From: an uncultured Desulfosarcina sp.
GTDB taxonomy: Bacteria; Desulfobacterota; Desulfobacteria; Desulfobacterales; Desulfosarcinaceae
Assembly: GCA_963674945.2 (NCBI GenBank)
Contig: CAXXWQ010000004.1
Span: 640,001 to 704,000 of the forward strand
DNA: 64,000 bases
Reading direction: 5' to 3'
Position numbers and translations under genes: made by a program. Of the stretch, positions 8,021 through 63,584 are shown in pieces (position 1 is the first letter of the stretch; each line of letters opens with the position of its first letter). The notes below the pieces were generated by a model, which saw only the letters and a list, made by a program, of their open reading frames with translations, made no database searches and was not told the origin of the DNA.

Positions 8021-8037
8021 GGCATTATCGGTTTAGA

Positions 8038-8154: not shown

Positions 8155-8198
8155 AATACAACGAATAAACCCACTACAGGGAAAAGGAGTAATAAAAG

Positions 8199-19120: not shown

Positions 19121-19293
19121 TCCAATATCAATTATAATAAGCTCATCAAAAAGTCAGTAAATTAGGTTTTTTGCACAATATGTAATTTCATATGGTTTCA
19201 GAGTCCTAAAACAATAATTTCGACTGTTTACTGTTGTCAATTGGGAAAAATGCAATCAAAAACAATCTTTTACCAGGTAGGAGGAACTTTTAC

Positions 19294-20733: not shown

Positions 20734-20739
20734 TAAGAG

Positions 20740-21948: not shown

Positions 21949-21965
21949 TGTAAGGAGAATGAAAT

Positions 21966-22412
21966 ATGCCGAAGATTGGTAAGTATTGGGTAGACAAGGA
22001 TCTTTACTACTGGCCCCATGACACCGCGCACAGCTGGGCGAAAAATGAAGACGGTAAAATCAGAGTGGGCGTCGACGACTTTGCTCAGAAGCAGGCCGGA
22101 GAACTCAAGTTTATGAGACTTTTCCCCGCCGGTAAGAAAGTGAAGCAGGGAAAACGGTTCGGAACCCTGGAGACGGCCAAGTGGGTCGGCCCATTGTTGT
22201 CGCCTGTAAACGGAACGATCGTAGAGACCAACCAGGCGGTTCTGGACCAGCCGACGCTGGTCAACGAAGACCCTTATGGCGATGGCTGGCTGGTGATTAT
22301 CGAGCCGTCCGACATAGATGATGATATGACCCGGCTGGTGAAGGGAGACTCACCCGAAGCTGCCGAATGGATGAAGAAAGACATCACTGAGATCGCCAAG
22401 GAAAATGTGTAA
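21966..22412 (+). CDS. gcvH: GcvH/LbpA-like lipoyl-carrier protein (type B)
   Basis: RVGVDDFAQKQAG, LETAKWVGP, VNEDPYGDGW. Confidence 0.88.
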   Translation: MPKIGKYWVDKDLYYWPHDTAHSWAKNEDGKIRVGVDDFAQKQAGELKFMRLFPAGKKVKQGKRFGTLETAKWVGPLLSPVNGTIVETNQAVLDQPTLVNEDPYGDGWLVIIEPSDIDDDMTRLVKGDSPEAAEWMKKDITEIAKENV

Positions 22413-22787
22413 TAACGTACTTCACCTGCACCGCAGGTGGTAATAAAAAGCCCCCTCGAAAGAGGGGGCAATAAAACGGCGGCATACACAATCCCAACGA
22501 TCGTGGCATAAATTTCGCCATTTATCTATAGGTTCTTCCTCCATTTTCGTCCTTTTGGCTTTTCGGAGGGAGAGCCTATTTATGCTCATAGGATCGGCAG
22601 AACCGTATGCGTCCACGACGAAACGTGGGTGGCGAATGCCTGACGGTAAGAGCCTCGATATTATACTAACGGGAGCCCATAATAGCATCCGCACCTTACT
22701 GTTCGCAGCTCATGGGAAGTGTAAGAAGTATTACAGGCAAAGGGCTTCAGGGGCTGATGCTACTTGTTCATAATGAAGAGGGATAGA

Positions 22788-24224: not shown

Positions 24225-24235
24225 GAGAGACAGAC

Positions 24236-25408
24236 ATGGAAATTTCAGATCTCAAGAAATATAGCATTGATATTGACCCTTTGGTTTGTGTCCAGTGTGG
24301 TTATTGCCGCACCGTTTGCCCCATATTCGAGCAAATTCCCTGGGAGTCGGCTTCACCTCGAGGAAAGCTTTTTTATTTGAAGGAGCTTGTTCGAAAAGGC
24401 GCCTCAGAGCTTGATGAAGACTTTGCCAATCGCCTGTTCCAATGCACGCTGTGCGGTCGTTGCGAGGAGGTGTGTCAGCTTGCCATTAAAACCGAGGATA
24501 TGTGGCGAAAGGTCAGAGCTGCCGTATATGAAGCCGGCAAGAGCCCCGAGCCGATCATGGCGATGGACGGGGGACTTGCGGAAAAACAGAACCCATATGG
24601 TTCGGACTCATTTTTACGTGACATGTGGACCGACTTTATGGATGATGACGAAATTCCGGATAAGGAAACGGCACACACCATATTCTTTGTCGGCTGCACG
24701 TCGGCCCTCAAAGCGCAGACCCAGGATATTCCCGCGGCAGCGGCGCGTATTCTTAATTGCGCCGGTGAGGATTGGACGTTTTTAGGTGAGGACGAGGTGT
24801 GCTGCGGTTCACCCAATATGATGGTAGGCAATCTGGAAAAAGCGAAAGATCTTGCCAGACAGAATACGGAGCAATTTGAAGCAAGGGGCGCCAAGAGAAT
24901 TGTAACGAATTGTCCCGGCTGTTACCGGGCCCTGGAGAAATATTCGGAGATGCTCGGGCGTAAGCTTGACTTTGAAGTACTTCACCTTACCGAGCTTGTC
25001 AGTCGATATCTGAAGGAAGGGCGTATTAAAGTAAAAGAGAAGTATAAGGAAAAAATCATCTATCATGATCCTTGCGAGCTGGGACGCCTGAGCGGCATAT
25101 GCGAAGACCCCAGAGCGATTCTGAAGGCAATCACGGACCAGCCCGTTGACTTTCCGGAGAACAGGGCAGACAGCCAGTGTTGTGGTGGAGGCGGATTGCT
25201 TATGGCGGTAGACGGTGATTTGCGTCTTCGGATCGGAGAGAACAAAGCCAAAGTGGCAAAAAAGATGGGCGCCGATATCATCACATCGGCCTGTCCGTCC
25301 TGCAAAATGGTACTTGACGATGCCGCAAAGAGCTTGAAAACCGGCGCAAAGGTGCTCGACATAATGGAGCTCTTGGCTGAAAAACTGGAAGACCCTGCTG
25401 AAGAGTAG
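24236..25408 (+). CDS. HdrD/GlcF-like Fe-S oxidoreductase with CCG domains
   Basis: CVQCGYCRTVCP, CTLCGRCEEVC, CCGSP, CCGGGG. Confidence 0.9.
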   Translation: MEISDLKKYSIDIDPLVCVQCGYCRTVCPIFEQIPWESASPRGKLFYLKELVRKGASELDEDFANRLFQCTLCGRCEEVCQLAIKTEDMWRKVRAAVYEAGKSPEPIMAMDGGLAEKQNPYGSDSFLRDMWTDFMDDDEIPDKETAHTIFFVGCTSALKAQTQDIPAAAARILNCAGEDWTFLGEDEVCCGSPNMMVGNLEKAKDLARQNTEQFEARGAKRIVTNCPGCYRALEKYSEMLGRKLDFEVLHLTELVSRYLKEGRIKVKEKYKEKIIYHDPCELGRLSGICEDPRAILKAITDQPVDFPENRADSQCCGGGGLLMAVDGDLRLRIGENKAKVAKKMGADIITSACPSCKMVLDDAAKSLKTGAKVLDIMELLAEKLEDPAEE

Positions 25409-36257: not shown

Positions 36258-37508
36258 TTAAAAACTTATATTGAAACCTAAGGCGAATGTCTGAATATTC
36301 TGTTTCAGTTTTTGTGTAGATCCAAGAGAGCCTTCAGGGTTTACGACTTCGTCGTCCCACATGTAAATATAGGCAACCGTCACATCGAGTGTCGGCTTGA
36401 AATAGTAGGTAGCGCCGAATCCAACGGAATATGAATCGATTTTAGCACTCACGTCGGTTTGCAATTCATCCGGCATTCCTTTTTTGGAATAGAGATATCC
36501 AATACTTGTCAGCAATTTGTCCGGCACTGCGGCATACTCGATGCCGACACCGGCTTCCCATCCATTCTCGATACCAGGCCCCCTCTCATCGGACCAGTCT
36601 GTCCCCTCATTATAATAAAAGATGAAACTGGTCTCGACTCTCCACCGCCGCGTAATATCGTAAGACACCCCAAGTGCAAAATCCTGCGGGATCGTATTGT
36701 CCGCTTTTTGTCCATCTCGTTCTGCAAAAGCACCATAAAGATCTTTGCCATCGTGAATCTCTTGTTCCAGCTCCATTTTCGTATAGTACGAATACCGAAG
36801 GCCGATATTCAACTCTTGAGTTGGTGCGATATTCGCGCTAAGTACGAATCCAAGGCAGTCTCCGGACAGCGTCATATCAAGTTCTTCGGTGGGTTGCTCC
36901 ACACCATTGAGAAACGGCGTTATCGTTGCGGAATTACCGCCGAAGGTGTAGACATAACGCAATTGACCGGCGACGGAAAACATGTCGTTGATGGCATACG
37001 CCGCGCCGACTGAAAAGCCGGCTCCGGCAAAATAGCCGCTAAATTCAGATTTCGCGTCATCGCCCCCCCCAAGTGCAATTCCGATAAAGTCGGAGAATGG
37101 AAGTCCATCTTCGTGTGTGCCGGTACCGCCGCCGGTTATTAAATCGAAACCGAACATGTAGGCCAGGTCGTCTTTTTTATGGGCGATGTGTAAATTGGGA
37201 AACACGGGGGATACTACGTAGGATGAATATTCGTCGCGATTCAGCAAGGGATTGTTATCATGAAACCAGAATTTCTTGTAAGTCGACTGGTTACTGAATC
37301 CGATATGGGTACCATCTGTCAACTTCACCGTTCCCGCGGGATTGAAAAAAACTGCGTCGACGCCGGTCGATGCATATCTGTTCAACGTCCTGATCCATTC
37401 AGGACTTTGGTTGGGGTTTGAAACGATGCCGCCGGGCCCTGCCGCAAAAAGGTCTGTGGCAATGAACAATGCAAAAAGAGCCGCCGGTATTAGAACTTTT
37501 TTGAACAT
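36258..37508 (-). CDS. FadL/OmpP1/TodX family outer-membrane channel
   Basis: Signal peptide; DAVFFNPAG; alternating beta-strand pattern; terminal Phe. Confidence 0.82.
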   Translation of the reverse strand: MFKKVLIPAALFALFIATDLFAAGPGGIVSNPNQSPEWIRTLNRYASTGVDAVFFNPAGTVKLTDGTHIGFSNQSTYKKFWFHDNNPLLNRDEYSSYVVSPVFPNLHIAHKKDDLAYMFGFDLITGGGTGTHEDGLPFSDFIGIALGGGDDAKSEFSGYFAGAGFSVGAAYAINDMFSVAGQLRYVYTFGGNSATITPFLNGVEQPTEELDMTLSGDCLGFVLSANIAPTQELNIGLRYSYYTKMELEQEIHDGKDLYGAFAERDGQKADNTIPQDFALGVSYDITRRWRVETSFIFYYNEGTDWSDERGPGIENGWEAGVGIEYAAVPDKLLTSIGYLYSKKGMPDELQTDVSAKIDSYSVGFGATYYFKPTLDVTVAYIYMWDDEVVNPEGSLGSTQKLKQNIQTFALGFNISF

Positions 37509-38026: not shown

Positions 38027-38911
38027 TTACACATATTGTTCTTTGAGAAGTTCTCCTGATTTGTAGGAGCTTCGAACAAAGGGCGCCGATGCGATGGCAC
38101 GGAATCCCATTTTTTTGCCTTCGGCTTCCAGTTCTTGGAATTCCTCCGGGGGAATGAACCTTACGACCGGGGCATGATTTTCCGATGGACGCAGATATTG
38201 ACCGATGGTGAGAAAATCACAGTCGACGCGCCGTAGATCTTCCATTACGGCAAGAAGCTCCTGCCTGGTTTCACCCAGCCCGACCATCAGCCCTGACTTG
38301 GTGATCACCTCTTTTTCCATCTGCTTGACATCGGAAAGGATTGTGAGAGATCGCCGGTAGTTGGCCTTTGGTCGCACTTCCTGATACAGACGGGGTATGG
38401 TCTCCAGGTTGTGGTTGAAAACATCCGGCTTTTCTCCAGCTACCATTTCCACGGATTCTTTGGACCCTTGAAAATCCGGTACCAGCACTTCGACGGTTAT
38501 CTTTTTTCCGATTTCGCGAATGGCGCGGATGGTCCGGACAAAGTGATCCGCCCCGCCATCCGGCAAATCATCCCTTGTCACGGATGTGACCACCACATGG
38601 GCCAGCCCCAACTCATACGATGCCGTTGCGATCCGCTCCGGTTCATCCGGGTCCAGGAGCCCGGGACATCCGCCCTCTACCGCACAGAACCGGCAGTTCC
38701 GGGTGCAGACGTCGCCCATGATCATGAAGGTGGCCGTTCTCTTGGAAAAACACTCACTTTGATTGGGGCAAAGGGCGCTCTGGCACACGGTGTGAAGTTT
38801 AAGCCGCGAAAGGGTCCGGCGCACCTCATTAAAATGCTTGCCCTGGCAGATTGGTCTGACCAGCCAGCCCGGCAATCGTTGCGATTGATCTTGTAACGTA
38901 TCTCGATCCAT
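38027..38911 (-). CDS. lipA: Lipoyl synthase
   Basis: CX4CX5C (CQSALCPNQSEC), CTRNCRFC, C-terminal RSSY. Confidence 0.96.
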   Translation of the reverse strand: MDRDTLQDQSQRLPGWLVRPICQGKHFNEVRRTLSRLKLHTVCQSALCPNQSECFSKRTATFMIMGDVCTRNCRFCAVEGGCPGLLDPDEPERIATASYELGLAHVVVTSVTRDDLPDGGADHFVRTIRAIREIGKKITVEVLVPDFQGSKESVEMVAGEKPDVFNHNLETIPRLYQEVRPKANYRRSLTILSDVKQMEKEVITKSGLMVGLGETRQELLAVMEDLRRVDCDFLTIGQYLRPSENHAPVVRFIPPEEFQELEAEGKKMGFRAIASAPFVRSSYKSGELLKEQYV

Positions 38912-38913
38912 AT

Positions 38914-39735
38914 CTATCCTGCCTTTAACGGGGCAGTGGGATTGTACTTCTCTTCGAGCAATGTCCTGCTTACATCTTCCTCATATGAAGATAAGGTATC
39001 TTCGAAGAATCGAATCCCAAACGCGTCTTGAAAACCCTGGAAAAGGGCTTCTTTCATCTCTTGCCGGTCGACCTTCCTGCCTAACAATTCGGTAATGCCG
39101 GTGGCTCTTTTTCTGAATACGGCCACTGCCCTTTCCCTTCTCTTGCTGGAAGAGAAATTCAAAACGGAAAAGATAAGTGGCACATCGAGGGTGATGGGAA
39201 GCGAGCCGTGTTGCAGCAGCACATCGCCCCTTCGGTACTGTGCGCTTCCAGCCACCTTTCGGCCCCGACACGTCAGATCGCCGAAGCTGGCAGCATTAAA
39301 ACAGGCTGCCGGGGCAGAATCTTCGCGATGGGGGGCGAGGCTGACATCCAGACCCAAAATCTTGTATGCGGCGATCAGTCCCTGACTGATTGCCTTATAA
39401 GATTTTGATACGCCATAGGGGAAACCACACTTTCCGGAAGCCACGACGCTGTAAGTGACTTCATCTTTATGCAAAACAGATCGCCCACCGGTTGCCCGGC
39501 GGACGATGTCGATGCCGTTTTCAAGACATTTCTGCTCGTCGATATCCTTTTTTATATTCTGAAAGTAGCCCACTGTCAGCGCAGCGGGCTCCCACTCGTA
39601 TACCCGCAACGTCGGCGGCGTCATGTCCAGTTCATGGACGCGAAACATCGCCTCGTCGATCGCCATATTGGTGAATCCATCGTTGATTCCAGTGTCGATA
39701 AAACGCCATTTCGTCTGCAGTGCTTTTTGAACCAT
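38914..39735 (-). CDS. Lipoate-protein ligase / octanoyltransferase (LplA/LipM-like, single domain)
   Basis: NMAIDEA, VRRATGGRSVLH, KVAGSAQ, LQHGS. Confidence 0.92.
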   Translation of the reverse strand: MVQKALQTKWRFIDTGINDGFTNMAIDEAMFRVHELDMTPPTLRVYEWEPAALTVGYFQNIKKDIDEQKCLENGIDIVRRATGGRSVLHKDEVTYSVVASGKCGFPYGVSKSYKAISQGLIAAYKILGLDVSLAPHREDSAPAACFNAASFGDLTCRGRKVAGSAQYRRGDVLLQHGSLPITLDVPLIFSVLNFSSSKRRERAVAVFRKRATGITELLGRKVDRQEMKEALFQGFQDAFGIRFFEDTLSSYEEDVSRTLLEEKYNPTAPLKAG

Positions 39736-39796
39736 GGTGTTATCTTCTGTGTACCAACAGGCTTTCGGGTTTCCTGTTCGCTCCTTTTGTGAAATC

Positions 39797-41182
39797 CTAC
39801 GATGTATGAATCGCCTTTCCCAAGGCGGCTTCTGCCGCTTCCATGATGCCTTCCGCCAATGTCGGGTGGGCGTGAATCGTCGCGCCGATCTGTTCGGCGG
39901 TCAGGCCCCATCTTACCGCCAGGGCCACTTCGGCGATCAGGTCTGTGGCGTGAGGGCCTAAAATCTGTGCGCCGAGAACACGTTCGGTGCCTTCCTCCAC
40001 CACCACCTGCACGAATCCCACATCCTCGCCAATGGTCAGCGCCTTTCCGCAAGCGGCAAAGGGAAATTTGCCGATCTTGACTTTCTTGCCGGCCGCTTCG
40101 GCCTTGGCCATGGTCAGGCCCACGCTGGCCACTTCCGGTGTGGTGTAGACGCAGGCCGGCACGGCGCTGTAGTCCATGGTTGACGCATGACCCGCGGCGT
40201 TTTCCGCGGCCACGATTCCCTCGTCCGAGGCCACATGGGCCAGCATGATTCCGCCCACCGCATCGCCAATGGCATAAATGCCGGAAACATTGGTTTCCAT
40301 TTTGTCGTTAACGATAATATTGCCTGCCGGGCCCATCTCGACGCCCAGCTCTTCCAGCCCCATGCCGGAGGTGCAAGGCCGCCTGCCGATGGAGACCAGC
40401 ATCTTTTCGGCAACGATTTCGTCACCGGTGCTCAAGGCGGCGGTGATTCCATCCGGGCGGTACTCTTTGATTCCTTCCACCTTGGTCTCCAGGTGGAATA
40501 CCACTCCCCTTCGTTCCAGAATTCGCTGCATCTGGTCCGCAACACTTTTCTCTTCCAGCGGCAAGGCCTGGTTCATCATCTCCACGACGGTGATTTTGGT
40601 TCCCAGGGAGCTGAAAACACAGGCGAACTCAAGGCCGATGACGCCTGCCCCGACAATGAGAAGGCTCTTGGGCGGCGCTTCGAGTTTCAGTGCCTCGTCA
40701 CTGGTGATCACCGCTTCCTGAGTATAATCGAAAAACGGGGGTTTGGCTACAACAGAACCCGTTGCGATGATGATCTTTTCGGCCTCGATCTCCTGGGTCC
40801 CTTTCTTGCCTTCCACCCTGACCCTGTTGGAATCAAGCAGTGTCGCGGTTCCTTTGATGGATTTGATCTTGTTTGCCTTGAGAAGCATCTTAATGCCCTG
40901 ACGAAGCTCGCCCACCACCTGCTTTTTGCGCTCCATCATTTGAGAAAAGTTGGGCTTGACGTCCCCGACCTCGACACCGAATTCCTTGGCGTCTCTTATG
41001 ATGTCGAGGATATGAGTGGAAGCCAACAGGCACTTGGTGGGAATACAACCACGATTCAAGCATGTACCACCCACCGCCTTTTTTTCCACCAGCGCCACAC
41101 TGGCGCCAAGTTGCGCTGCCCTGATGGCGGCTACATACCCTCCAGGGCCTCCGCCGATAACGAGTACTTGCACTTTTTCCAT
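39797..41182 (-). CDS. lpdA: Dihydrolipoamide dehydrogenase
   Basis: GGGPGGY, GGTCLNRGCIP, HAHPTLAE. Confidence 0.96.
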   Translation of the reverse strand: MEKVQVLVIGGGPGGYVAAIRAAQLGASVALVEKKAVGGTCLNRGCIPTKCLLASTHILDIIRDAKEFGVEVGDVKPNFSQMMERKKQVVGELRQGIKMLLKANKIKSIKGTATLLDSNRVRVEGKKGTQEIEAEKIIIATGSVVAKPPFFDYTQEAVITSDEALKLEAPPKSLLIVGAGVIGLEFACVFSSLGTKITVVEMMNQALPLEEKSVADQMQRILERRGVVFHLETKVEGIKEYRPDGITAALSTGDEIVAEKMLVSIGRRPCTSGMGLEELGVEMGPAGNIIVNDKMETNVSGIYAIGDAVGGIMLAHVASDEGIVAAENAAGHASTMDYSAVPACVYTTPEVASVGLTMAKAEAAGKKVKIGKFPFAACGKALTIGEDVGFVQVVVEEGTERVLGAQILGPHATDLIAEVALAVRWGLTAEQIGATIHAHPTLAEGIMEAAEAALGKAIHTS

Positions 41183-41187: not shown

Positions 41188-43023
41188 TTATCCTCTGCTA
41201 TCTTTCCAATTCGTTTCCGGAGAAAACCGGAGGGCTTGTGCAAACACTTTTGGATATCCCGGAAAACTCGTTAGTTCCACATAATTCACCCGACGGGCGA
41301 TATCCATCGACATACGGCGCTGCGACTTGGATATCAATGCCTGTTTCGCACCCACGCCTGCCGCGTTTCCCACCTGAGAATAACGGTCAAGGTCAAGCGG
41401 TGGCAGCATCCCGATACGGATCGCGCTGGCCACATCAATATAGTTGCCGAAGGCGCCGGCGATGATCACCTCCTCGACGTCTTGCCAATGGACGCCGGCT
41501 TGCTCCAGAAGGATATTCATCCCGGAACCGATGGCACCTTTGGCCAGTTGAATTTCACTCAAGTCCTTGCCGGTAAGCGTGATGTCCTTTCCGGTACCGC
41601 TTTGTTCACCACTGGCAAGGACGAACTCTTTCCCTTTTTCGGAATCACGGATACAGGGATGGGCGTTCATTCTGCCCTTGGCATTGATGATTCCCGTTTC
41701 CAACAATTGCGCTGCTGCATCGAGAATGCCCGAGCCGCACAAACCGATGGGCGGTTTGCCGTCGATGGTCTGCAAGATAACGGAATCGCCGTTGATCTTG
41801 ACCTTTTCGATGGCGCCGGCCATGGCACGCATGCCATTTTTGATATGCGCTCCCTCAAAAGCCGGTCCCGAAGCACAGGAACAGCAGCTTAGCTTCCCAT
41901 TGGCCACCAACGTGATCTCGGTGTTCGTTCCGATGTCGATGCCGATGACGGTTTTGTCGCTGTCGGCGATACCCGTGGCCAGGAGCATGGATACGTGGTC
42001 GGCACCCACGAAACCGGCGATGTTGGGCATCGTGTATACATATGCTCCGGGGGCGACGGCAAGGCCGATATCCCTGGCTTTCGTGTAAAGTGAACCTGAG
42101 GCGATGGGGGTGTACGGCGCCATGATCAACTGTTTAACGGGAAGACCGAGAAAGAGGTGATGCATGGCCGTGTTGCCCACCAGCACCACTTCCACGATAC
42201 TATCCGGGTCCTGGCCCGTATCGGCGCACGCCCCTTTGACGATCTTGTTGATGCCTTCCACCACTACCTTGCGCAGTGTATCCCCATCATTTTCGATGGC
42301 ATAGGAGATACGGCTCACGATATCTTCGCCGTAGGCGATCTGGGGGTTCATCACACCCTTGGCCGTCAGGACTTCTCCCGTCTCCAGGTCGGTCAGGTAC
42401 GCGGCAATGGAGGTCGTTCCCAAATCCACGGCAAGCCCAAGCACCCGATCATCGGCTTTTCCTGCGGAAACCACCTCGTTTCCATGCAGACCGATTTTTG
42501 CATGCCACTCATTGTCCCGCAGGATCGTTGACAATCGACGTTGTGCATAAAGATCTAAACGGATATCTTTTTTGTCGCAATGCGCAGCCAGATAGTCGGC
42601 GATTCTGAGTTGATCCGATCGGTTGTCGTCCTTTCCCGGGCGCGACAGTTGGATATCAACGATCTCGACAACCGGATCGTTCAGAGTACTCTTTTCATCA
42701 CCGACAAGATGTACCCGTTGGGAATCTTCAAGCGACTCCAACGGAACTTCGACCTTGACGTCTCCGTATATCCTGGTCAGGCACGCAAGCCGATATCCTT
42801 GACCGATCTCTTCACCGCTCAAAGACTTCTTTTCTCTTTCGTCCGGGGGCGACACTTCGCCGGACAAGATGCGAACTTTGCATTTGCCGCAAGTCCCTTT
42901 GCCGCCGCAAAGGGACGCCAGGCCTATGCCATAGTCTCGAGCCGCCTGAAATATCGTCGTCTCGTAGTCGGCACTGATCCGCCTGCCGATTGGCTGTAAA
43001 TCGATTCTGCACTTTTCATACAT
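41188..43023 (-). CDS. RACo/RamA-type corrinoid reductive activator
   Basis: Translation identical to 25738-27573. Confidence 0.92.
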   Translation of the reverse strand: MYEKCRIDLQPIGRRISADYETTIFQAARDYGIGLASLCGGKGTCGKCKVRILSGEVSPPDEREKKSLSGEEIGQGYRLACLTRIYGDVKVEVPLESLEDSQRVHLVGDEKSTLNDPVVEIVDIQLSRPGKDDNRSDQLRIADYLAAHCDKKDIRLDLYAQRRLSTILRDNEWHAKIGLHGNEVVSAGKADDRVLGLAVDLGTTSIAAYLTDLETGEVLTAKGVMNPQIAYGEDIVSRISYAIENDGDTLRKVVVEGINKIVKGACADTGQDPDSIVEVVLVGNTAMHHLFLGLPVKQLIMAPYTPIASGSLYTKARDIGLAVAPGAYVYTMPNIAGFVGADHVSMLLATGIADSDKTVIGIDIGTNTEITLVANGKLSCCSCASGPAFEGAHIKNGMRAMAGAIEKVKINGDSVILQTIDGKPPIGLCGSGILDAAAQLLETGIINAKGRMNAHPCIRDSEKGKEFVLASGEQSGTGKDITLTGKDLSEIQLAKGAIGSGMNILLEQAGVHWQDVEEVIIAGAFGNYIDVASAIRIGMLPPLDLDRYSQVGNAAGVGAKQALISKSQRRMSMDIARRVNYVELTSFPGYPKVFAQALRFSPETNWKDSRG

Positions 43024-43162: not shown

Positions 43163-44062
43163 TTAGAAAATCTTAAACAGCGGGTGATCCGGACCGGGTC
43201 GCAGCCCCATGTTCATTCCGCCGTAGGCCAGCATGGCATCCACCGCCCCTGCCGCCGGATAAAACCATTTTGCGTTTCGGGTCGGACCGTAAAAGATGAA
43301 GCTGCCCCCCCAGCAAAGCGGCAATGCGTAAACAACGGATGCGGTGGCTTCGAAGGCCGGTGTGCCGCGGTCACGCAGTTTCTTCCACAGATAAATGGCG
43401 TTCGATGGTGCACAGCCCCACGGCAAACCAAGCTCATTTTTCACCAGCTGGGCGGCCTGGGTGGCCCAACCGACGCTGGGGATATCCAGTATGCCAAGGT
43501 CGATCAGAAAGTTTTCCAGCCCGGCTTTCTTCGCCGCGGGATACATGTTCTCCTTGAGCAGTTTGAACCTGGCTTTCGGCTTGATCGCCTTCGTGGTCAG
43601 GGGAAGAATCACCACGCTCTTGATACCGCATTCGGCGATACACTCCATTTCATCTTCTTTATAGTGCCCCTCCATGGAATTGTAGATCAGACGGGGGATA
43701 AGCTCGCTTCCGGCAAAATGCCGGATGGCCTCCATCCGTGCCTTGGGAAGCGCAGAATCCACCAGGATGGGGGAGGTGGTATTGGCCGCCACCCACTCGA
43801 TATAGTTGATCAATGCCTCACCGGTATCTCCGATGACATCGATGATGCGCGGATTGCCGGTACTCAGCGACAATTCTTCTTCTTTGTCCAGCAATGCCTT
43901 GGCTTTGTCCTTATCGAAGATTCCTTTATCGGTATCCTTGACGATCTTGTGACCGCGGAAGAACATGCTGCCGATCATGACGGAAGGGTTCTCTCCGGGC
44001 TTGCCGCCGACTTTGACGCCGGCGATATCGAATACTTTCTGTTCCGTAGCGAATTCAAACAT
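43163..44062 (-). CDS. MtrH-family methyltransferase
   Basis: Differs from 10066-10965 at only a few residues. Confidence 0.88.
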   Translation of the reverse strand: MFEFATEQKVFDIAGVKVGGKPGENPSVMIGSMFFRGHKIVKDTDKGIFDKDKAKALLDKEEELSLSTGNPRIIDVIGDTGEALINYIEWVAANTTSPILVDSALPKARMEAIRHFAGSELIPRLIYNSMEGHYKEDEMECIAECGIKSVVILPLTTKAIKPKARFKLLKENMYPAAKKAGLENFLIDLGILDIPSVGWATQAAQLVKNELGLPWGCAPSNAIYLWKKLRDRGTPAFEATASVVYALPLCWGGSFIFYGPTRNAKWFYPAAGAVDAMLAYGGMNMGLRPGPDHPLFKIF

Positions 44063-44112: not shown

Positions 44113-44583
44113 CTAATCATCATCGTCCTCGTCTTCATCCATCAATGGCACATTTTCTTCTATCATCTCGTTGATCCATGCCTTGGTATCCTCATCCGCC
44201 CCCTTCTTCAGTGCCTTTACTTCACTGTCATCGGCGGTTTCAACTTCCATCACCCAGCCGTTGCCATACGGATCCATCTGGATGGGATTGGCGTTTCCCT
44301 TGGTAAGGGGCGGATTGATTGCAGCTACGGTCCCACTTACGGGGGCGATGATCTCCCAGACACCCTTGCTGGTTTCCACATGCCCGACTGGCTTCCCCTT
44401 GGTGATTTGCGCACCCTCTTTGGCAACGATCTTGACATGCGCCAATTTTTTTACCGCTTTGACACCAAGGTCTGATATGCCGATTTGAACCTTGTTTCCA
44501 CCCAGGTCCTTGACCCAGATAAACTCTTCCGAATAATATATGTCCTCGGGGAATTTGAGTTCCTTGCCATACATGTTCTTCAT
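44113..44583 (-). CDS. gcvH: GcvH-like lipoyl-carrier protein (type A)
   Basis: VETSKG lipoyl-Lys motif; DPYGNGW; acidic tail; paralog of 9558. Confidence 0.85.
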   Translation of the reverse strand: MKNMYGKELKFPEDIYYSEEFIWVKDLGGNKVQIGISDLGVKAVKKLAHVKIVAKEGAQITKGKPVGHVETSKGVWEIIAPVSGTVAAINPPLTKGNANPIQMDPYGNGWVMEVETADDSEVKALKKGADEDTKAWINEMIEENVPLMDEDEDDDD

Positions 44584-44631: not shown

Positions 44632-44985
44632 TCATTCAGGTGGTTCGATAACCGGTATTAATACCAGGGCAAGGCCGTCTAATGCCTTACTTGGTACCAT
44701 CGTTCCCTCGGCCTTTGCCTGCGACGCATTAATATCACCATTAAGTATTCCGAGGAGTATGTCGCTATTCGCTTCGATAACACTGGTAGCGGCTTCTTCA
44801 TCTATTTTCTCTTCAAGGCTTTCCACGGTGCCGTCCGGGGCCATCTGCATGAACCAGCCCGTGTTCAGGTCAGGCACTTTGAAAAGAATGCTTCCACCCC
44901 AGTCGTCCACTACGTCCGGTCCGATATCATTGAGCCTCTCAACCGCTTGGTCCAATCGTTTCTGCAATGCTTCCTTGTCTGCCAT
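44632..44985 (-). CDS. SCP2 sterol/lipid-binding domain protein
   Basis: Paralog of 9174; ILNGDINASQAKAEG. Confidence 0.7.
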   Translation of the reverse strand: MADKEALQKRLDQAVERLNDIGPDVVDDWGGSILFKVPDLNTGWFMQMAPDGTVESLEEKIDEEAATSVIEANSDILLGILNGDINASQAKAEGTMVPSKALDGLALVLIPVIEPPE

Positions 44986-45004: not shown

Positions 45005-46222
45005 TCATTTAAGTTTGCCGTGGTTTCTGGCCGCCGATACGGCAGCAGAAAAATTCTCCGGTGGGGTTAAGTAGTCAACAGCTGCAATTCCGATGGAAAA
45101 TTTATTGTACGACTTTCCATAGTTGCACAGTTTTTCTACCTCTTCTTCAATTACCGAGGCTGGCCCGTTGGAAAGAATCGCATCGGATAGTGCACAGCAG
45201 CAGTATACATCATTTTCCCGGGAGCAATCGACTGCTTTTCTATAGTCCATTTCGGCGCAGAACCATCCTTGTAAACTGCCGGGTCCAACCGCCCTTTGTG
45301 CACGCATCTCCGGAAACCAATCAAGAGCTCCTTCATACGTCATTGCGTACCAACACGGTAATTTTGATCCAAGCACTTTTCCTAATCTCTCGTAATAACT
45401 AAGTATCCATTCATTTCCCTTTAGTGGGGCAAATCCGATTTGGCTGCATAGGATCAGGCAGTCCGCACCTGCCTCAATCGCGGCCAGACCCGTCTTTATC
45501 GTCCATTCTGTGGCCAGATTCATACTACGTTGGCATAATTCGGAGTCCTTGCGCAAAGCCCTCATATATCCGGTCCATCCCATCATGAACATACCGACGG
45601 TTCCCAAGGGGTCGTTGCCAATACATACCGACAAAGGCATGATTTTGTCGAGTTCTTGGTCTACCAATAGGCGCTTGATTTCTCGGCAAGCCCAGAGATA
45701 ACCGGTGTATAGGCCCGTATGACAGGGATCGGGAATATCGAACCCTTCCAGATCCGCAAGTGACTTGATTGGAAACCCCTTGACCTGAGCCGGATTGCCG
45801 TAATCCACCATCTGTGCATCCGCTCCCCAAATTTCCTGCGTATAGCTGATGGGGTAAAGGATGGGAAGATCGAGTCCATACTTTGCTACCGTGGCCAGAT
45901 GAGCCTTGACCAACAGTTTCGGATCTCTACAAACATCTCCGGGTTTCCAGCGCTGTCCATGCGGGTCCAACGTACGAACAGCATATGGATTAAAGTAGTA
46001 GGACTCGAGAAACAGCCGATCTTTTTCCCTGCCTTTCAATGTGGCATGCAGTCTCTCAAAAGAAGTAAGCGTATCTCCCGAGTCTTCGATATTGCGATGA
46101 ATTTGCTGGCAGTACCCTCTCAGTTCTCGTTGTTCCGCCTCTGACCATGAAAAATCCAGCTCATCCAGCGGTATACCATACCAATATGGGGCGCCTGCCA
46201 GCGTTCCATGTTTTAGCGTCAA
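45005..46222 (-). CDS. UROD/MtaA-fold methyltransferase (Cys form; start uncertain)
   Basis: GAPYWYG..TSFERL..KDR; GYLWA; ADCLILCSQ; TPPENF. Confidence 0.82.
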   Translation of the reverse strand: MTLKHGTLAGAPYWYGIPLDELDFSWSEAEQRELRGYCQQIHRNIEDSGDTLTSFERLHATLKGREKDRLFLESYYFNPYAVRTLDPHGQRWKPGDVCRDPKLLVKAHLATVAKYGLDLPILYPISYTQEIWGADAQMVDYGNPAQVKGFPIKSLADLEGFDIPDPCHTGLYTGYLWACREIKRLLVDQELDKIMPLSVCIGNDPLGTVGMFMMGWTGYMRALRKDSELCQRSMNLATEWTIKTGLAAIEAGADCLILCSQIGFAPLKGNEWILSYYERLGKVLGSKLPCWYAMTYEGALDWFPEMRAQRAVGPGSLQGWFCAEMDYRKAVDCSRENDVYCCCALSDAILSNGPASVIEEEVEKLCNYGKSYNKFSIGIAAVDYLTPPENFSAAVSAARNHGKLK

Positions 46223-46247
46223 ACCGTACGAAGTGTCTTTCCGGTTA

Positions 46248-46937
46248 CTATTTGTTTCTCTCGATCCACCGGGCCATCTTGCCGTCCAAGATCGCCTTGA
46301 CCTTTTCCAGTGCATCGAAGGCACTCTCGCCAAAGGTATCGGCGCCGACTTCGTCACACCACTCAGGCGTCATGCCCCAGCCGCCGGTGATAAAGATCAC
46401 GTCGTCCCTGACGCCGGCTTCGACCATGGCCTTGTGGATGACACCGCAATACGGCGTAACCGGTCCGATGATGGCAGAGGCGCCCACGATATCGGGCTTG
46501 TACTTCTTGATCGCTGCAACAAAATTATCGGCCGACACGTTCTCTCCGATGTCGATGGCCTTGATGCCTGCACCGGAAAAGAAGGCGGAGACGATTCTTT
46601 TGCCGACGTTGTGAAGATCACCTTCCACTGTGCCGATGATCATCACCTTATCCTCCGGCTTCCGATTCATGATGGAGGCTTCGACATCCGCTGTCGGCAG
46701 CAACTTCTCCATGGCGTCGTTCATGATCTGTCCCGAGATCATCAGGTCGCTCATGAACCGGTCATTGGCCTCGTACTCATCGCCAATGATGGTCAAGCCG
46801 GGACTCAACCCCTTAACAATGACGTCCAGGGCAGGAATTTTGGCATCCATGCATTCCTGAACCAACTGGGCGACCAAATCATCATCCAGATCGATAATCG
46901 CCTCTTTTAATTTTTCCAGTATTTCGTCGTTCGCCAT
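46248..46937 (-). CDS. Methyltransferase cognate corrinoid protein
   Basis: GTVEGDLHNVGK. Confidence 0.92.
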   Translation of the reverse strand: MANDEILEKLKEAIIDLDDDLVAQLVQECMDAKIPALDVIVKGLSPGLTIIGDEYEANDRFMSDLMISGQIMNDAMEKLLPTADVEASIMNRKPEDKVMIIGTVEGDLHNVGKRIVSAFFSGAGIKAIDIGENVSADNFVAAIKKYKPDIVGASAIIGPVTPYCGVIHKAMVEAGVRDDVIFITGGWGMTPEWCDEVGADTFGESAFDALEKVKAILDGKMARWIERNK

Positions 46938-46994
46938 TTGGACCAGCCTCCTTTACTTGCACGAAAAAGTTTATGTGCCAATTGAACCCATTAC

Positions 46995-48248
46995 CTACTC
47001 ATATCTACCGTATTTTTTAAGCGCGGCGACTCCGATATCAATGTTCTCTGCAGTCGTCCAGTATGTCGGTTTAAATGACGGACCGAACTTGGGCTTGTTC
47101 TTATGGCGCATCACCTGCGTCTTTATCGCTTCTTCGATCTCGCTCGGGGAGCCGAACTCGATGATGTGGTCGTCGATGGTGTAGCTCATGTACAGTTCAT
47201 GATCATGGTGCCAGTCCGCAGCATAATCCAGGTCCACTGCGCCGCTTCCGCCGGTTCCGCCGTTGAAGGTCTTTCCGATCGGTCCTAAGCCCCCATGCTC
47301 ATACATCACTTCAAACCACTCCTGTGCCTTGCCCAGGTACGCATATCCATAGCCCATGGAAAGTTCTTTGTTCAATTTGTCCTTACTGTACTGACAGATG
47401 GTTTCGCCAACGATTCTGAAGTGATCAGCAATCCAGATGTTTTTGTCGTTTCCCAACGGGAAACCGCCATCCTGACTTCACATCGTTATCCCATCGGGTT
47501 GGGCCTCCTCTATCATCGCCTTGCCGAAGCTGCAAAGCCATTGTACGGCGATTTCGCTGCACGCCTTGACAAGGTCCGGTTTCTTGCGAAGACCGATACT
47601 GAACTCGGTCCAGCCCATCATCCCCATCATCACCATCAGTGGTGGTCCGGGGCAAATCGATGTCCATACCGGAATGGGAAGCTTGTATTTCTCAACGATC
47701 CGCCTGTATTCCCGGCAAGCCCAAAGATAACCCGGATACAGCCCGTCTTTCCGGGCATCGGGCAGCGGCATGCCTTCCAGGTCTTCCATGCTCTGGATGG
47801 GAGGTTTGCCTTTGATAATCGGGTTGCCGTACTCGATCATCGATGACAGGCCGCCCCACATATCCTCGCCGTAATTGATGTTGTGGATGCAGCTGTAATC
47901 GAGACCGAACCGTGCCATCATCGACAAGTGGGCCTTTACATACAGCTTGGGAAATTGGTACACGTCGATCGGCTTGTAGGCATCGGCGGAGTGATCCAGC
48001 ATCTTCACCGTATATGGGTTGTTATGCGGTATTCCCATGAACATACGGTCTTTGTCCTTGCCCCACATGGCAGCCTGAAAGCGCTCCAGCGGGGTCATGC
48101 CCCCCTCTTCCTCGATATTCTTGAGGATCTTCTCACAAATGCGCTCTATTTCCCGTGTCTCTTCGGGAGACCACTCAAAATCAAGTTTATCGAGCGGTGT
48201 GTTGTACCAGTAAGGCGCATTTTCAAGTGGCTGTCTTCCTTTAAACAT
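46995..48248 (-). CDS. UROD/MtaA-fold methyltransferase, candidate selenoprotein (TGA 47480-47478, codon 257)
   Basis: PDGITM*SQDGGFPLGND in frame, 417 aa joined; hairpin GTTTCCC-GTT-GGGAAAC downstream. Confidence 0.85.
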
Positions 48249-48416: not shown

Positions 48417-49067
48417 CTACCCCCTGGCGGCTACGATCGCCTTGACTTTCTCGATGGCTTCATTGGCGGTGTCGCCATAGGCATCGGCGCAAACCTTGTC
48501 GCACCACTCCTGCGTCATGCCCCAGCCACCGATGATGTATATCACCTGGTCCCTGATGCCCGCTTCCACCAGCGCATCATGAATCACCTTGCAGTACGGC
48601 TTCTGGGGGCCTAAAATCGCAGAAGCGCCAACGACCTTGGCATTGTACTCCTTGGCCGCCGCGACAAAGGCATCCGCCGTCTGGTTCTCACCGATGTCGA
48701 TCACATTGTAACCGGCCGCGGTAAACACCGAGGCCACGACACGCTTGCCCACGCAGTGCTCGTCGCCTTCCACCGTGCCGATCACCATGTTCTGGCCCAC
48801 ACCCGTGGATCCTTTTTCCATCACCGGCTTCAACCTGGTGATCACATCGTTTAACAGCTCGCCGGCCAGAACCAGGTCGCTGGTGAATCGCGTATGGGCA
48901 TCGAAGCCCTCACCGATGATGGTCAGACCCGGTTGAAGCCCTTCGATGATGATCTCCATGGGATCCATGCCCGCCTCCAACGCTTCGTCGACCAGATCCA
49001 TTACATCGTCGTCTTCGATCTCAACGGTGGCTTCCGTTAATTTCTTAAGGATTTCCTCTTTAGACAT
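48417..49067 (-). CDS. Methyltransferase cognate corrinoid protein
   Basis: GTVEGDEHCVGK. Confidence 0.92.
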   Translation of the reverse strand: MSKEEILKKLTEATVEIEDDDVMDLVDEALEAGMDPMEIIIEGLQPGLTIIGEGFDAHTRFTSDLVLAGELLNDVITRLKPVMEKGSTGVGQNMVIGTVEGDEHCVGKRVVASVFTAAGYNVIDIGENQTADAFVAAAKEYNAKVVGASAILGPQKPYCKVIHDALVEAGIRDQVIYIIGGWGMTQEWCDKVCADAYGDTANEAIEKVKAIVAARG

Positions 49068-49109: not shown

Positions 49110-50357
49110 TTAGAACCTTGCCATTTTCTTGGTCATATCAAACAGCTTGTCCACATACTCCATGGGAGTCCAGTAGTCGAGAACACCGAGGGCCTGGAAG
49201 TGCTTGGGATATTTCTTGGCTTCGGCAACGCGCACTTTCAGTTCCGCTTCCACGGCGTCAAAATCGCCATCCAGAACGATATGGTCATCCACACTGCACC
49301 CGCAGTACAAATCCTTTTCCCTGGCATAGGCATGGATAAAGGCGGGATCCATCTCAGGGCCGACCCACCAGCCGTCGAAACTGCCCGGACCGACAGCGCC
49401 ATGGGGATAGTAATGCTCCTGCCAGTGTTCCCATCCGTTTGCGCCCAGGGTATGCCACATGGGAATATCCTTGCCCAGATGAGACTTGATCGTCTTTCCC
49501 ACGTCCGCATACACATCCATGATGAACGTATTGTCCAGTTTTTTCGTCTTCGGAGGAAATGATCCCATGAAAGAGCACATGTACAATCCATCCGGGCCGG
49601 TCTCCTTGCACGCCTTGCCGAATGCCTTCTGGAACTCCGCCGCCTTCCACATGCACGCCTGGAACAGCTCGGGATTTTTCTTCATCATCACCGTGCCGGG
49701 ACCAAAACCGGTCATGCCCAAAAACATGGTGCCCAAAGGATCTCCGCAGAACGACAGCTCCACAGGCAACTTATCGGCAACACCGTATCTTTTCATGATC
49801 GTTTTTATCTCTTTGGCCGCCCAGAGGTATCCGGGATACAGGCTGTGCTTCTTCGGATCGGCCGGCAATACGCTCTCCAAATCCTCCATCGTCTTGATCG
49901 GCGGCTCGCCCACCATCTGCGGGGTCCCGTAGTCGATCATCCGCCCGTTGCCGCCCCAGCACTCTTCCGTATAGTGGATCACGTAAATGTTGATGATATC
50001 CAGCTTGAAACGCGCGGCCATGGCCAGATGACCCATGATGTGAAGCTTGGGCCGCTGATATAAGTCACCGGGCTTTATGGCGTCCGCCCAGGAATCAAGA
50101 CAGCGAACGGCATACGGGACATTGTACTTGCATTCGATGTGAAGACGGTCCTTGTCTTTCTTCTCGAAGGTAGCCCGAAATCGCTCCATCGGCGTCATCT
50201 CTTCCTCTTCACAGTTCTCGCCGATCTTTTCGCACAACCGCTTGAGGATCAGTTCCTCCTCCACACTCCACTCAAAATGCTGATCCTCCAGCGGTACGCC
50301 GTACCAGTCGGATGGAGCATTTTCCATGTGTCCAATTTTTACCTGTGGTTCCGCCAT
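49110..50357 (-). CDS. UROD/MtaA-fold methyltransferase (Cys form)
   Basis: MTPMERFRA..KDR; FCGDP; PDGLYMCSF; DYWTP. Confidence 0.85.
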   Translation of the reverse strand: MAEPQVKIGHMENAPSDWYGVPLEDQHFEWSVEEELILKRLCEKIGENCEEEEMTPMERFRATFEKKDKDRLHIECKYNVPYAVRCLDSWADAIKPGDLYQRPKLHIMGHLAMAARFKLDIINIYVIHYTEECWGGNGRMIDYGTPQMVGEPPIKTMEDLESVLPADPKKHSLYPGYLWAAKEIKTIMKRYGVADKLPVELSFCGDPLGTMFLGMTGFGPGTVMMKKNPELFQACMWKAAEFQKAFGKACKETGPDGLYMCSFMGSFPPKTKKLDNTFIMDVYADVGKTIKSHLGKDIPMWHTLGANGWEHWQEHYYPHGAVGPGSFDGWWVGPEMDPAFIHAYAREKDLYCGCSVDDHIVLDGDFDAVEAELKVRVAEAKKYPKHFQALGVLDYWTPMEYVDKLFDMTKKMARF

Positions 50358-50453: not shown

Positions 50454-51707
50454 CTACTCATATCTACCGTATTTTTTAAGCGCGGCGACTCCGATATCAA
50501 TGTTCTCTGCAGTCGTCCAGTATGTCGGTTTAAATGACGGACCGAACTTGGGCTTGTTCTTATGGCGCATCACCTGCGTCTTTATCGCTTCTTCGATCTC
50601 GCTCGGGGAGCCGAACTCGATGATGTGGTCGTCGATGGTGTAGCTCATGTACAGTTCATGATCATGGTGCCAGTCCGCAGCATAATCCAGGTCCACTGCG
50701 CCGCTTCCGCCGGTTCCGCCGTTGAAGGTCTTTCCGATCGGTCCTAAGCCCCCATGCTCATACATCACTTCAAACCACTCCTGTGCCTTGCCCAGGTACG
50801 CATATCCATAGCCCATGGAAAGTTCTTTGTTCAATTTGTCCTTACTGTACTGACAGATGGTTTCGCCAACGATTCTGAAGTGATCAGCAATCCAGATGTT
50901 TTTGTCGTTTCCCAACGGGAAACCGCCATCCTGACTTCACATCGTTATCCCATCGGGTTGGGCCTCCTCTATCATCGCCTTGCCGAAGCTGCAAAGCCAT
51001 TGTACGGCGATTTCGCTGCACGCCTTGACAAGGTCCGGTTTCTTGCGAAGACCGATACTGAACTCGGTCCAGCCCATCATCCCCATCATCACCATCAGTG
51101 GTGGTCCGGGGCAAATCGATGTCCATACCGGAATGGGAAGCTTGTATTTCTCAACGATCCGCCTGTATTCCCGGCAAGCCCAAAGATAACCCGGATACAG
51201 CCCGTCTTTCCGGGCATCGGGCAGCGGCATGCCTTCCAGGTCTTCCATGCTCTGGATGGGAGGTTTGCCTTTGATAATCGGGTTGCCGTACTCGATCATC
51301 GATGACAGGCCGCCCCACATATCCTCGCCGTAATTGATGTTGTGGATGCAGCTGTAATCGAGACCGAACCGTGCCATCATCGACAAGTGGGCCTTTACAT
51401 ACAGCTTGGGAAATTGGTACACGTCGATCGGCTTGTAGGCATCGGCGGAGTGATCCAGCATCTTCACCGTATATGGGTTGTTATGCGGTATTCCCATGAA
51501 CATACGGTCTTTGTCCTTGCCCCACATGGCAGCCTGAAAGCGCTCCAGCGGGGTCATGCCCCCCTCTTCCTCGATATTCTTGAGGATCTTCTCACAAATG
51601 CGCTCTATTTCCCGTGTCTCTTCGGGAGACCACTCAAAATCAAGTTTATCGAGCGGTGTGTTGTACCAGTAAGGCGCATTTTCAAGTGGCTGTCTTCCTT
51701 TAAACAT
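50454..51707 (-). CDS. Candidate Sec methyltransferase, duplicate copy (TGA 50939-50937)
   Basis: Identical to 46995-48248. Confidence 0.82.
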
Positions 51708-62450: not shown

Positions 62451-63584
62451 ATGAGTACGAGTGTTGCCAAAACAATTGAACCGTCCGATAAGGTCGTTGA
62501 ATCGCCTGATTACGTAAGAGTCAGTTCGGCAGCCGCCATGACCCTCGGACTCATGCCGGGCAGGTTTCTTCGTGGTGCGAAACTGTATTGCATCAACCTT
62601 CTTCTCATGTACGATAGCGGCTGTGCCGGAAAGTGCGCCTATTGTGGGCTGGAGAGGGCCAGGCAGTCCGATAAGTCCTGGGAAGATCGCAGTTTCATTC
62701 GGGTACCTTGGCCGGTTGTCAGTCTGGATGAAGTCATCGAGAGAATGGGACATGACTATTGTTCCCACGTGCAGCGTGTCTGTGTCTCCATGGTGACCAA
62801 CGGCAGAGCAAAGGGAGACACCCTTGAGATCGTGAGACGACTGAGCAAAAAGACGGATTCCATATCGGGACTGATCGCTCCCACCATCATTGATAAGAAT
62901 TGGCTGATAGACTTGAAAGAAGCCGGTGCCGACTGGTTGGGAGTGGCTGTGGATGCGGCGACCCCCGAGCTGTTTGATCAACTGCGGGGCAAGGGTGTGG
63001 GCGGACCGCATCGTTGGGATCGTTACTGGAAGACAGTAGAACAAGGAGTGGAGGTATTTGGGAAATACAAGGTCGGTATTCACCTGATCGTCGGTGTGGG
63101 AGAAACCGAGCAGGAGTTTCTCAGCACAGTTCAAAAAGCCTACGATATGGGATCGTTGACCCATCTTTTCTCCTTTTTCCCCGAAGCAGGGTCCGCGATG
63201 ACGGATTGCACCCAGCCGCCTGTAGGACAATACCGGCGCTCCCAACTCGCAAGGTATCTGATCAACAAGGGGTTGGGCAGATTTGAAGATATGTCCTTCG
63301 ATGAGAATGGAAAACTGACGGACTTCGGCGTGCCGAAATCTTTACTCGATGAGACCATCGACAGCGGCGTGCCGTTCATGACCTCCGGGTGTGACGGCAA
63401 AACCAGGACAAACGTTTGCAATCGCCCGTTTTCCAATTGTACGCCGTATCAGGCATATATGGGAGAACTCAGAAACTATCCCTTTACCCCAATTGCCGAC
63501 GACATCGTGGTGATACGGAAACAACTTGAAGACTATTCCGATATTCCGACGAAAGAGTGGAAGGAAGGTCTTGGGTGTGGATGA
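62451..63584 (+). CDS. lipS2: Radical SAM protein, LipS2-type lipoyl synthase subunit
   Basis: CAGKCAYC; C-terminal TSGC..CNRP resembles the LipS2 TxGCPxC(N/D)RP motif. Confidence 0.72.
   Translation: MSTSVAKTIEPSDKVVESPDYVRVSSAAAMTLGLMPGRFLRGAKLYCINLLLMYDSGCAGKCAYCGLERARQSDKSWEDRSFIRVPWPVVSLDEVIERMGHDYCSHVQRVCVSMVTNGRAKGDTLEIVRRLSKKTDSISGLIAPTIIDKNWLIDLKEAGADWLGVAVDAATPELFDQLRGKGVGGPHRWDRYWKTVEQGVEVFGKYKVGIHLIVGVGETEQEFLSTVQKAYDMGSLTHLFSFFPEAGSAMTDCTQPPVGQYRRSQLARYLINKGLGRFEDMSFDENGKLTDFGVPKSLLDETIDSGVPFMTSGCDGKTRTNVCNRPFSNCTPYQAYMGELRNYPFTPIADDIVVIRKQLEDYSDIPTKEWKEGLGCG

Follow-up and report, generated by a model that had tools for sequence, protein, structure and literature searches.

Gene neighbourhood and repeat structure

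The gene considered here lies at 46995..48248 on the minus strand of the window (the whole 64,000-nucleotide stretch of DNA that was analysed) and encodes a methyltransferase-like protein of the URO-D/MtaA fold that falls into a Sec clade of its family. Its 417 codons contain a single internal stop, a TGA at codon 257 (47478..47480, minus strand) that is predicted to encode selenocysteine and stands in the context PDGITM*SQDGGFPLG. A reading of the plus strand was discarded, since the genes sit on the minus strand. An identical tandem copy of the gene is found at 50454..51707 (minus strand, TGA at 50937-50939), carried with it by a 3391-bp identical repeat (46984-50374 / 50443-53833), and a diverged Sec-clade paralog, 51% identical, is found at 15746..16993 (minus strand, TGA257 at 16223-16225). 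An earlier note on this DNA had placed a TGA at codon 257 of both the 46995 and 15746 genes and had described both halves of the 46995 gene as intact; translation confirmed the TGA codons, and neither half of either gene contains a further stop. Full copies of the family number 15 in this genome, with TGA257 in five, a Cys codon in nine and a Ser codon in one. Sequencing error as the source of the TGA was discarded, given five TGA copies in the genome (four distinct) and 11 contexts elsewhere. Short-read contigs from runs X1 and X3, which may be the source sample, span the TGA without a difference, and contigs from both start exactly at the repeat edge, 46984, which is compatible with a true repeat.

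The surrounding genes run in the order Cys-form methyltransferase, type A corrinoid protein, Sec-form methyltransferase, Cys-form methyltransferase, type A corrinoid protein, Sec-form methyltransferase, type B corrinoid protein, Cys-form methyltransferase, SCP2-like protein, GcvH1, MtgA-like protein, RACo, dihydrolipoyl dehydrogenase, LplA-like protein, LipA and FadL. The type B corrinoid protein (46248..46937, minus strand, 229 aa) is likely the cognate partner of the Sec clade: all six corrinoid B genes of the genome lie directly behind a Sec-clade gene, six of the eight Sec-clade copies have one (that of the 15746 paralog is at 14854..15543, minus strand), and the same order is found in the metagenomic contigs L024, L025, L026 and L032, whereas the gene behind the Sec gene in L027 and L029 is a different family member. 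The type A corrinoid protein (48417..49067, minus strand, 216 aa) has an identical copy at 51876-52526. The Cys-form members of the run lie at 49110..50357 (minus strand, 40% identical to the Sec protein, identical copy at 52569-53816) and at 45005..46279 (minus strand, 37% identical, start codon uncertain). The earlier note proposed that Sec and Cys forms share one operon; the Cys forms 49110, 52569 and 45005 are indeed in the same gene run, but they belong to other clades, 49110 to one and 45005 to a third, and at 37-40% identity are therefore not isoforms of the Sec gene.

Further along the minus strand are a small protein (44632..44985) that itself has no Pfam match but is SCP2-like via its homolog in L070, a GcvH-like lipoyl carrier (GcvH1, 44113..44583, with a diverged copy starting at 9558), an MtgA/MtrH-like methyl-corrinoid:tetrahydrofolate methyltransferase (43163..44062, second copy at 10066-10965) and a RACo/AcsV-like corrinoid reductive activase (41188..43023, inverted copy at 25738-27573, with a broken lipoyl synthase fragment behind the latter at 27775-28170). 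These are followed by lipoyl genes at 38027..41182 (minus strand), namely dihydrolipoyl dehydrogenase (39797-41182), a lipoate ligase-like protein (38914-39735) and lipoyl synthase (38027-38911), and by a FadL/TodX-like outer-membrane channel (36258..37508, minus strand). On the plus strand, 19234..25408 encodes a VAO/GlcD-like FAD protein, a CCG Fe-S protein, a second GcvH-like carrier and a second FAD and CCG pair, an arrangement repeated at 55761-61888; a related FAD and CCG pair occupies 3424-6102 (minus strand). The FAD proteins are distant GlcD/VAO members, and for the CCG proteins the best score, far under the cut-off, is against TfrB. Also on the plus strand are a further Cys-form member with a corrinoid protein (6566..8849) and a LipS2-like radical SAM lipoyl synthase (62451..63584), after which LipS1-, LplA- and GGR-like genes follow just past the right end of the window. 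Both GcvH-like types (21966-22412 and 44113-44583) have a Lys at the expected lipoyl position (ETAKW, ETSKG), and the former, with LipS1/LipS2 genes nearby, resembles LbpA in its motifs. Genes in the block at 28711-35675, which may serve corrinoid supply, encode DUF6951, a QueG-like Fe-S protein, a 253-aa protein of no assigned kind, a chelatase-like ATPase/VWA that seems to be fragmented, and DUF2284, OsmC-like and B12-binding proteins; DUF5131 is encoded on the opposite strand.

The corrinoid protein, tetrahydrofolate methyltransferase and activase are thus clustered in the architecture of a corrinoid MT1/CP/MT2/activase system, and acetyl-CoA synthase is present in the genome. The GcvH1-MtgA and FAD-CCG-GcvH2 blocks recur near the family in L035, L036, L061, L064 and L065, and the GcvH1 family is likewise small (78 proteins). 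Several parts of the island are duplicated over multiple kilobases with near identity (46984-53833; 20583-25655 / 57047-62135; 25726-27650 / 41114-43035; 48348-50347 / G000:C3), which reflects either recent amplification or, in part, assembly effects (contamination 5.69%).

TGA257 and its downstream hairpin

TGA257 falls exactly where relatives carry cysteine: outside the Sec clade (n=41), column 257 is Cys in 37 rows, Ser in three and Ala in one. The stop was TGA in all 15 stop-bearing DNA contexts and TAA or TAG in none, these distinct contexts comprising four from this genome, two from a Chloroflexota MAG (G041) and nine from metagenomes, two of the last being near-identical. Database homologs of the family frequently end at residue 256: this holds for 32 of 69 overall and, at 57% identity or more, for 32 of 33. 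These short entries cover 61% of the query; the 30 that were aligned all end just before residue 257, and the remaining two appear to correspond to L020 and L021, loci in which the TGA was seen. All 32 are taken to stop at a TGA, the codon having been seen in the DNA for the 15 contexts. Genome-wide reassignment of TGA to Trp or Gly was discarded because TGA terminates 321 of the 783 long frames in this genome.

A SECIS-like hairpin of 7 bp, with a GUU loop at +21..+23, follows the TGA of the 46995 gene (47448..47464, minus strand). The earlier note had read it as GTTTCCC-GTT-GGGAAAC with 20 nt ahead of the loop, and it was recovered in precisely this form at +14..+30. Taken singly, the 50-nt fold is only modestly above shuffled sequences (z -1.72, 10/200 shuffles equally good), so the strength of the hairpin rests on comparison across genes. 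A hairpin with a stem of at least 6 bp, a 3-nt loop and G at +21 is present in 14/15 TGA contexts (stems of 6-8 bp) compared to 0/22 Cys/Ser contexts, a difference that is not due to chance. The mean dG of the TGA genes is -9.8 kcal/mol, compared to -5.0 kcal/mol for synonymous recodings of the same peptide, and that of the Cys genes is -4.5 kcal/mol, compared to -4.6 kcal/mol for their recodings. The codons at +19..+24 are CCG and then TTG (14) or GTG (1) in 15/15 TGA genes and in 0/22 others; genome-wide, CCG makes up 37% of Pro codons and the Leu codon of the TTG/GTG position 20% of Leu codons. Covariation in 12 of the 15 TGA genes gave 94% of cells paired, with double changes at four of the seven pairs, a pairing matched by 0/500 shuffles (slid controls, 42-58% paired), although the TGA genes are related rather than independent, so that the pairing score is inflated and the shuffle counts are not probabilities.

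The sole exception among the 15 is the 15746 paralog, in which the family hairpin at +21 is broken, with one pair left, and another hairpin, of 6 bp and with a GUG loop, forms at +26 (16189..16203, minus strand). Consequently, the earlier note's view that hairpin position is kept between 46995 and 15746 does not stand, and its argument from structural covariation carries over to the wider family but not to this pair of genes.

Hairpins were also seen behind other TGA codons of this genome. In genes of known selenoprotein types (FdhA, HdrA and MvhD motifs), the loop G falls mostly at +20..+24, with one at +28. A genome-wide readthrough scan returned 213 candidates, 42 of them with hairpins, and is a rough filter, as many of these are false and it recovered just one of the 46995 family's four distinct TGA genes. 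Its other candidates include G000:C4:3285220 (-) with AVGG*MMG, C3:97185 (+) with CAGG*CAG and C3:92906 (+) with DEVP*SHG. Three further genes with NTE-TGA-GH (G000:C3:1547064 (+), C4:2883078 (-) and C4:3243826 (-)) have hairpins with the loop G at +24 and are probably members of the Fe-S oxidoreductase-like UGH selenoprotein family named in Table 1 of PMC13188914.

Two ways in which the recoding could fail had been raised in the earlier note, neutral evolution after the TGA and an independent start for the downstream half. Neither was borne out. Between 46995 and 15746, dN/dS is 0.289 after the TGA and 0.256 before it, with dS near saturation for this and other distant pairs; dN/dS after the TGA is 0.12-0.47 in 11/12 pairs, and the close pair L025/L026, with few synonymous changes (pS 0.09), gave 0.95 downstream. 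No downstream stops occur in any of the 15 TGA genes, and no conserved restart backed by a Shine-Dalgarno sequence was found. We nevertheless considered the TGA as a true stop, in a gene that is either split, with a restart at a TTG or GTG eight codons on, or a pseudogene. The codon at +8 is TTG or GTG in 15/15 TGA genes, a Shine-Dalgarno-like word precedes it in 3/15, and 46995 has more starts preceded by such words at +35, +57 and +58. However, the +8 codon is part of the hairpin itself, in its loop and stem; this accounts for the codon's conservation and would mask it as a start, and the Shine-Dalgarno word is absent in the other 12. The seven codons between the TGA and +8 retain the protein motif of the family, TAA and TAG never occur as the stop, in-frame Cys codons were restored by two reversions, and both the constraint after the TGA and the concordant short-read contigs described above argue against decay, making this reading very improbable. 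The claim of the earlier note that TGA257 is not a random nonsense mutation is upheld by the alignment with Cys, the hairpin restricted to TGA genes and the constraint after the TGA, and recoding of TGA257 with a SECIS is thus supported. The coincidence of TGA and hairpin with the Cys position of relatives makes it very likely, judging from these sequences, that the 46995-type family carries selenocysteine there.

Decoding of UGA257 and history of the family

This genome encodes selA, selD (with a TGA of its own), two selB genes and two UCA tRNAs. The first of these tRNAs is a canonical tRNA-Sec (75.4 bits). The second scores 51.3 bits, has A1:U72, U73 and a bulged short T stem, and lies directly upstream of the second selB; this selC*-type tRNA and selB (G000:C3:570751-572793, L002) are followed by two unrelated genes, not cysS*. 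A cysS* gene (encoding CysRS without the anticodon-binding domain) was not found with the queries used, either beside selB* or elsewhere in this 98.7% complete genome, and the CysRS genes that were found are one canonical gene and one CysK-like/CysRS fusion. The latter, a 760-aa protein with a CysRS domain (G000:C1:208754-211036; L014:595-2877), is a candidate second CysRS, and we take its N-terminus to be cysteine-synthase-like. As described in the available text of PMC5389517, the selC* tRNA-Cys(UCA)/SelB* system of Mukai et al. has the same tRNA traits before selB*. The present genome shares the A1:U72, U73, UCA tRNA before its second selB with that selC*/SelB*/CysRS* system, but the latter includes cysS*, for which no counterpart was found here.

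Given a selC*-type tRNA before the second selB and yet no cysS*, insertion of Cys at UGA257 via selC*/SelB* is possible on the gene content but unproven. That UGA257 is mainly read in this way, so that the product is usually a Cys protein, we regard as improbable: the second UCA tRNA and its placement speak for it, as in the published system (PMC5389517, available text), but the two CysRS genes seen do not include cysS*, and a usual product with Cys would leave the retention of UGA and hairpin across the whole clade difficult to account for. Moreover, the Chloroflexota MAG G041, which has two TGA genes, encodes selA and selB and, among the 150 of 722 tRNA candidates that were scored, a single tRNA-Sec above the cut-off, and this favours Sec as the meaning of the codon in the family. 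Another genome, G175, has Cys forms alone and no selA, selB or tRNA-Sec over the cut-off, and is not counted as evidence because it is an incomplete genome of 1.2 Mb.

In a quick tree of 92 rows with a midpoint root, all 43 TGA or short rows fall into one Sec clade (SH-aLRT 100) together with two nested Cys rows. Both nested Cys rows are from this genome, belong to different subclades and lack the hairpin, which, if the root lies outside the Sec clade, suggests that Sec was gained once and reverted to Cys twice in this genome. These close Cys isoforms, 79% and 58% identical to the Sec gene, lie elsewhere in the genome and are the revertants. They occupy G000:C4:2649142-2650392, C4:109742-110992 and C4:606180-607424 (two near-identical copies of one and a second), no longer have the hairpin though corrinoid B is still found downstream, and in several cases lie near a transposase gene or its remnants. 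Two loci, L067:12959-15259 and L068:4484-6601, form a side observation: a double-cubane reductase and a sulfonate-type ABC transporter near one revertant, while another Sec copy has an aldehyde ferredoxin oxidoreductase-like gene close by. The Ser-form member (L053; G000:C3:268078-269322) has no equivalent of Cys199, lies within an FAD/CCG/GcvH2 run and is perhaps non-catalytic, and among six distant 400-aa relatives (P0083, P0088, P0089, P0093, P0099 and P0106) the 257 column holds Cys in five.

Searches with one query did not find the 46995 family in 40 sampled relatives (24 of the same genus) or in 400 sampled genomes of the phylum, and found it in two of 401 sampled genomes of the class of G041. 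Named database matches of the family are Chloroflexota or Anaerolineales. The simplest reading, and an inference, is that the island was horizontally acquired and then expanded. Look-up in the ESM Atlas returned automatic URO-D names and nothing else, and as a lead, similar URO-D clusters appear in the Atlas in Thermoplasmatota.

Fold, candidate active site and proposed role

The Sec protein passes PF01208 narrowly (26.3 bits; gathering threshold 23.9), and neither Sec protein matches any NCBIfam model, including those for MtaA/CmuA (TIGR01463, NF004889) and HemE; the paralog 45005 reaches 21-24 bits against TIGR01463/NF004889, whose cut-offs are 235-244. Identity to UROD structures is 11-17%, and there is no match to the uroporphyrinogen decarboxylase (HemE) family. 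A structure model made with residue 257 as Cys (pLDDT 94) is a URO-D barrel whose best Foldseek match is MtaA 4ay7 (E 9e-13), and it superimposes on UROD and MtaA alike (Z about 31, rmsd 2.6-2.7, 326-336 aligned). MtaA of Methanosarcina mazei (4ay7/4ay8) is also the sole PDB match by sequence profile (E 6.5e-6), and the two proteins have the same barrel and a corrinoid-protein context in common. They differ in that identity is 17-18% and the N-terminus of the Sec protein is longer by about 50 conserved residues. The HICG and APGCG cysteine motifs of MtaA (4ay7), which we take to contain its Zn ligands, have no counterpart in the Sec protein: the strands aligned with them, in a half where the alignment is loose, carry neither a conserved His nor a conserved Cys. 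Residue 257 is instead at the end of strand 253-257, which aligns with the IAIAD strand of MtaA, one strand before the HxC motif and away from the zinc site. To our knowledge, MtaA has no Sec.

H122, E128, D129 and C199 are invariant in 45/45 Sec-clade rows, His122 being present in 2/47 others. In the model, H122, C199 and U257 each follow one of three successive barrel strands, which makes a His-Cys-Sec metal site plausible. Within the superfamily, according to the available text of PMC10418091, His-Cys-Cys marks the S/Se-methyltransferases, and O-methyltransferases have their Cys ligands swapped for carboxylates or non-ligands; CdmB, a related MT1, functions zinc-free (PMC13222342, available text). 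Three comparable systems have been described. The type 1 Mlp and SdmABC clusters (PMC10418091, PMC11097638) likewise combine several URO-D methyltransferases, corrinoid proteins and an activase in Sec-using anaerobes, but type 1 Mlps keep His-Cys-Cys and are tied to methyl-selenide substrates rather than to enzyme Sec, and the cluster described here contains, in addition, MtgA, GcvH of two types, lipoate assembly genes and VAO/CCG proteins. CdmB and the O-demethylases (PMC13222342) share the arrangement of MT1, corrinoid protein, tetrahydrofolate-methylating MT2 and activase, and a UroD barrel without the MtaA motif, a likeness drawn from the description; the same text gives CdmB as zinc-free and reports no Sec in it. 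HgcA is the one catalogued selenoprotein named as a corrinoid protein in Table 1 of PMC13188914, but is itself the cobalamin-binding protein, of a different family without the URO-D barrel.

Based on these data, the gene probably yields a full-length 417-residue protein of the URO-D/MtaA fold, with UGA257 read as Sec via the +14..+30 hairpin, that would act as MT1 of a corrinoid system. We have high confidence that SelB would bind the hairpin and that Sec-tRNA would decode the UGA. The neighbourhood points to an MT1 function on corrinoid B, methyl flow to tetrahydrofolate and a sulfur-handling side branch. It is quite likely that a methyl group would pass from the substrate to Co(I) of the adjacent type B corrinoid protein and from there, via MtgA, to tetrahydrofolate for Wood-Ljungdahl oxidation, with RACo re-reducing Co(II). 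There is close to an even chance that Sec257, Cys199 and His122, each at the C-terminal end of one of three consecutive strands, would form a soft (Zn) site replacing that of MtaA. As a guess at the substrate class from the neighbourhood, we tentatively suggest a hydrophobic methyl thioether; the freed thiol, or its electrons, might then travel via the FAD/CCG proteins, lipoyl-GcvH and dihydrolipoyl dehydrogenase. Under selenium shortage the UGA may receive Cys from selC*/SelB*, and the Cys-reverted paralogs may stand in.

The role of Sec and the nature of the methyl donor could each be otherwise. Instead of binding a metal, Sec might take part in redox or covalent catalysis, working as a Cys199/Sec257 pair or through a methyl-selenide intermediate that exchanges with the lipoyl arm of GcvH. 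The missing MtaA Zn motif would suit such chemistry, as would the fact that Cys199 and Cys/Sec257 are the sole conserved thiols of the barrel and the recurrence of lipoyl carriers, lipoate assembly genes, dihydrolipoyl dehydrogenase and CCG proteins with the family in other organisms; however, the invariance of His122 in the Sec clade fits a metal site, and in the loci examined GcvH1 is linked to MtgA rather than to the Sec gene, leaving this rather unlikely. We find it similarly unlikely that the selenoprotein is an MT1 whose methyl donors are ethers or other compounds without sulfur, as in enzymes of the O-demethylase or halomethane type, the alcohol or phenol set free then being oxidised by the VAO-like flavoproteins. 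The UroD barrel is common to the O-demethylases and CdmB (PMC13222342, available text), the FAD proteins match the GlcD/VAO/PCMH family, and FadL, SCP2-like and DUF1329 genes hint at a hydrophobic substrate; against this, O-methyltransferases lose Cys ligands, S/Se substrates go with His-Cys-Cys (PMC10418091, available text), and the Sec clade trends to a softer ligand. The preferred reading, a corrinoid MT1 with Sec at residue 257, can also be extended, more doubtfully still, to an undescribed anaerobic pathway in which a His-Cys-Sec selenoenzyme would cleave methyl or alkyl thioethers, with B12 chemistry coupled directly to lipoylated GcvH and CCG/flavin oxidoreductases, and in which, in this host, two tRNA/SelB pairs would compete to read the UGA as Sec or as Cys beside Sec-to-Cys revertants. 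If true, dependence on selenium would be hedged in three layers within a single enzyme family, and no known site of the URO-D superfamily would resemble the His-Cys-Sec one.

No description of the Sec family or of the corrinoid-lipoyl module was found in the catalogues, main texts and open literature consulted, and prior mention elsewhere is possible. Table 1 of a 2026 review covering 119 families (PMC13188914) has no PF01208 entry; the terms methyltransferase, uroporphyrinogen and corrinoid are absent from the main texts of BSepDB (PMC13326102) and deep-Sep (PMC12013277) in the parts available, as is uroporphyrinogen from the available text of PMC9312934. The family is a rare, predicted B12-dependent methyltransferase family missing from the selenoprotein catalogues checked, and as predicted from sequence its active-site layout differs from that of MtaA and its corrinoid-plus-lipoyl context is undescribed. 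It adds a selenoprotein family beyond the usual redox folds, and the recurrent link to lipoyl carriers points to a pathway for which no paper was found. In databases the Sec proteins end at residue 256 under the label uroporphyrinogen decarboxylase, and a corrinoid module of Chloroflexota MAGs, with 15 copies in this genome, is hidden as a result. One genome with Sec forms, two Cys revertants (one 79% identical) and selC*/SelB* offers a ready comparison, both for what selenium contributes to B12-dependent methyl transfer and for whether native genes are acted on by selC*.
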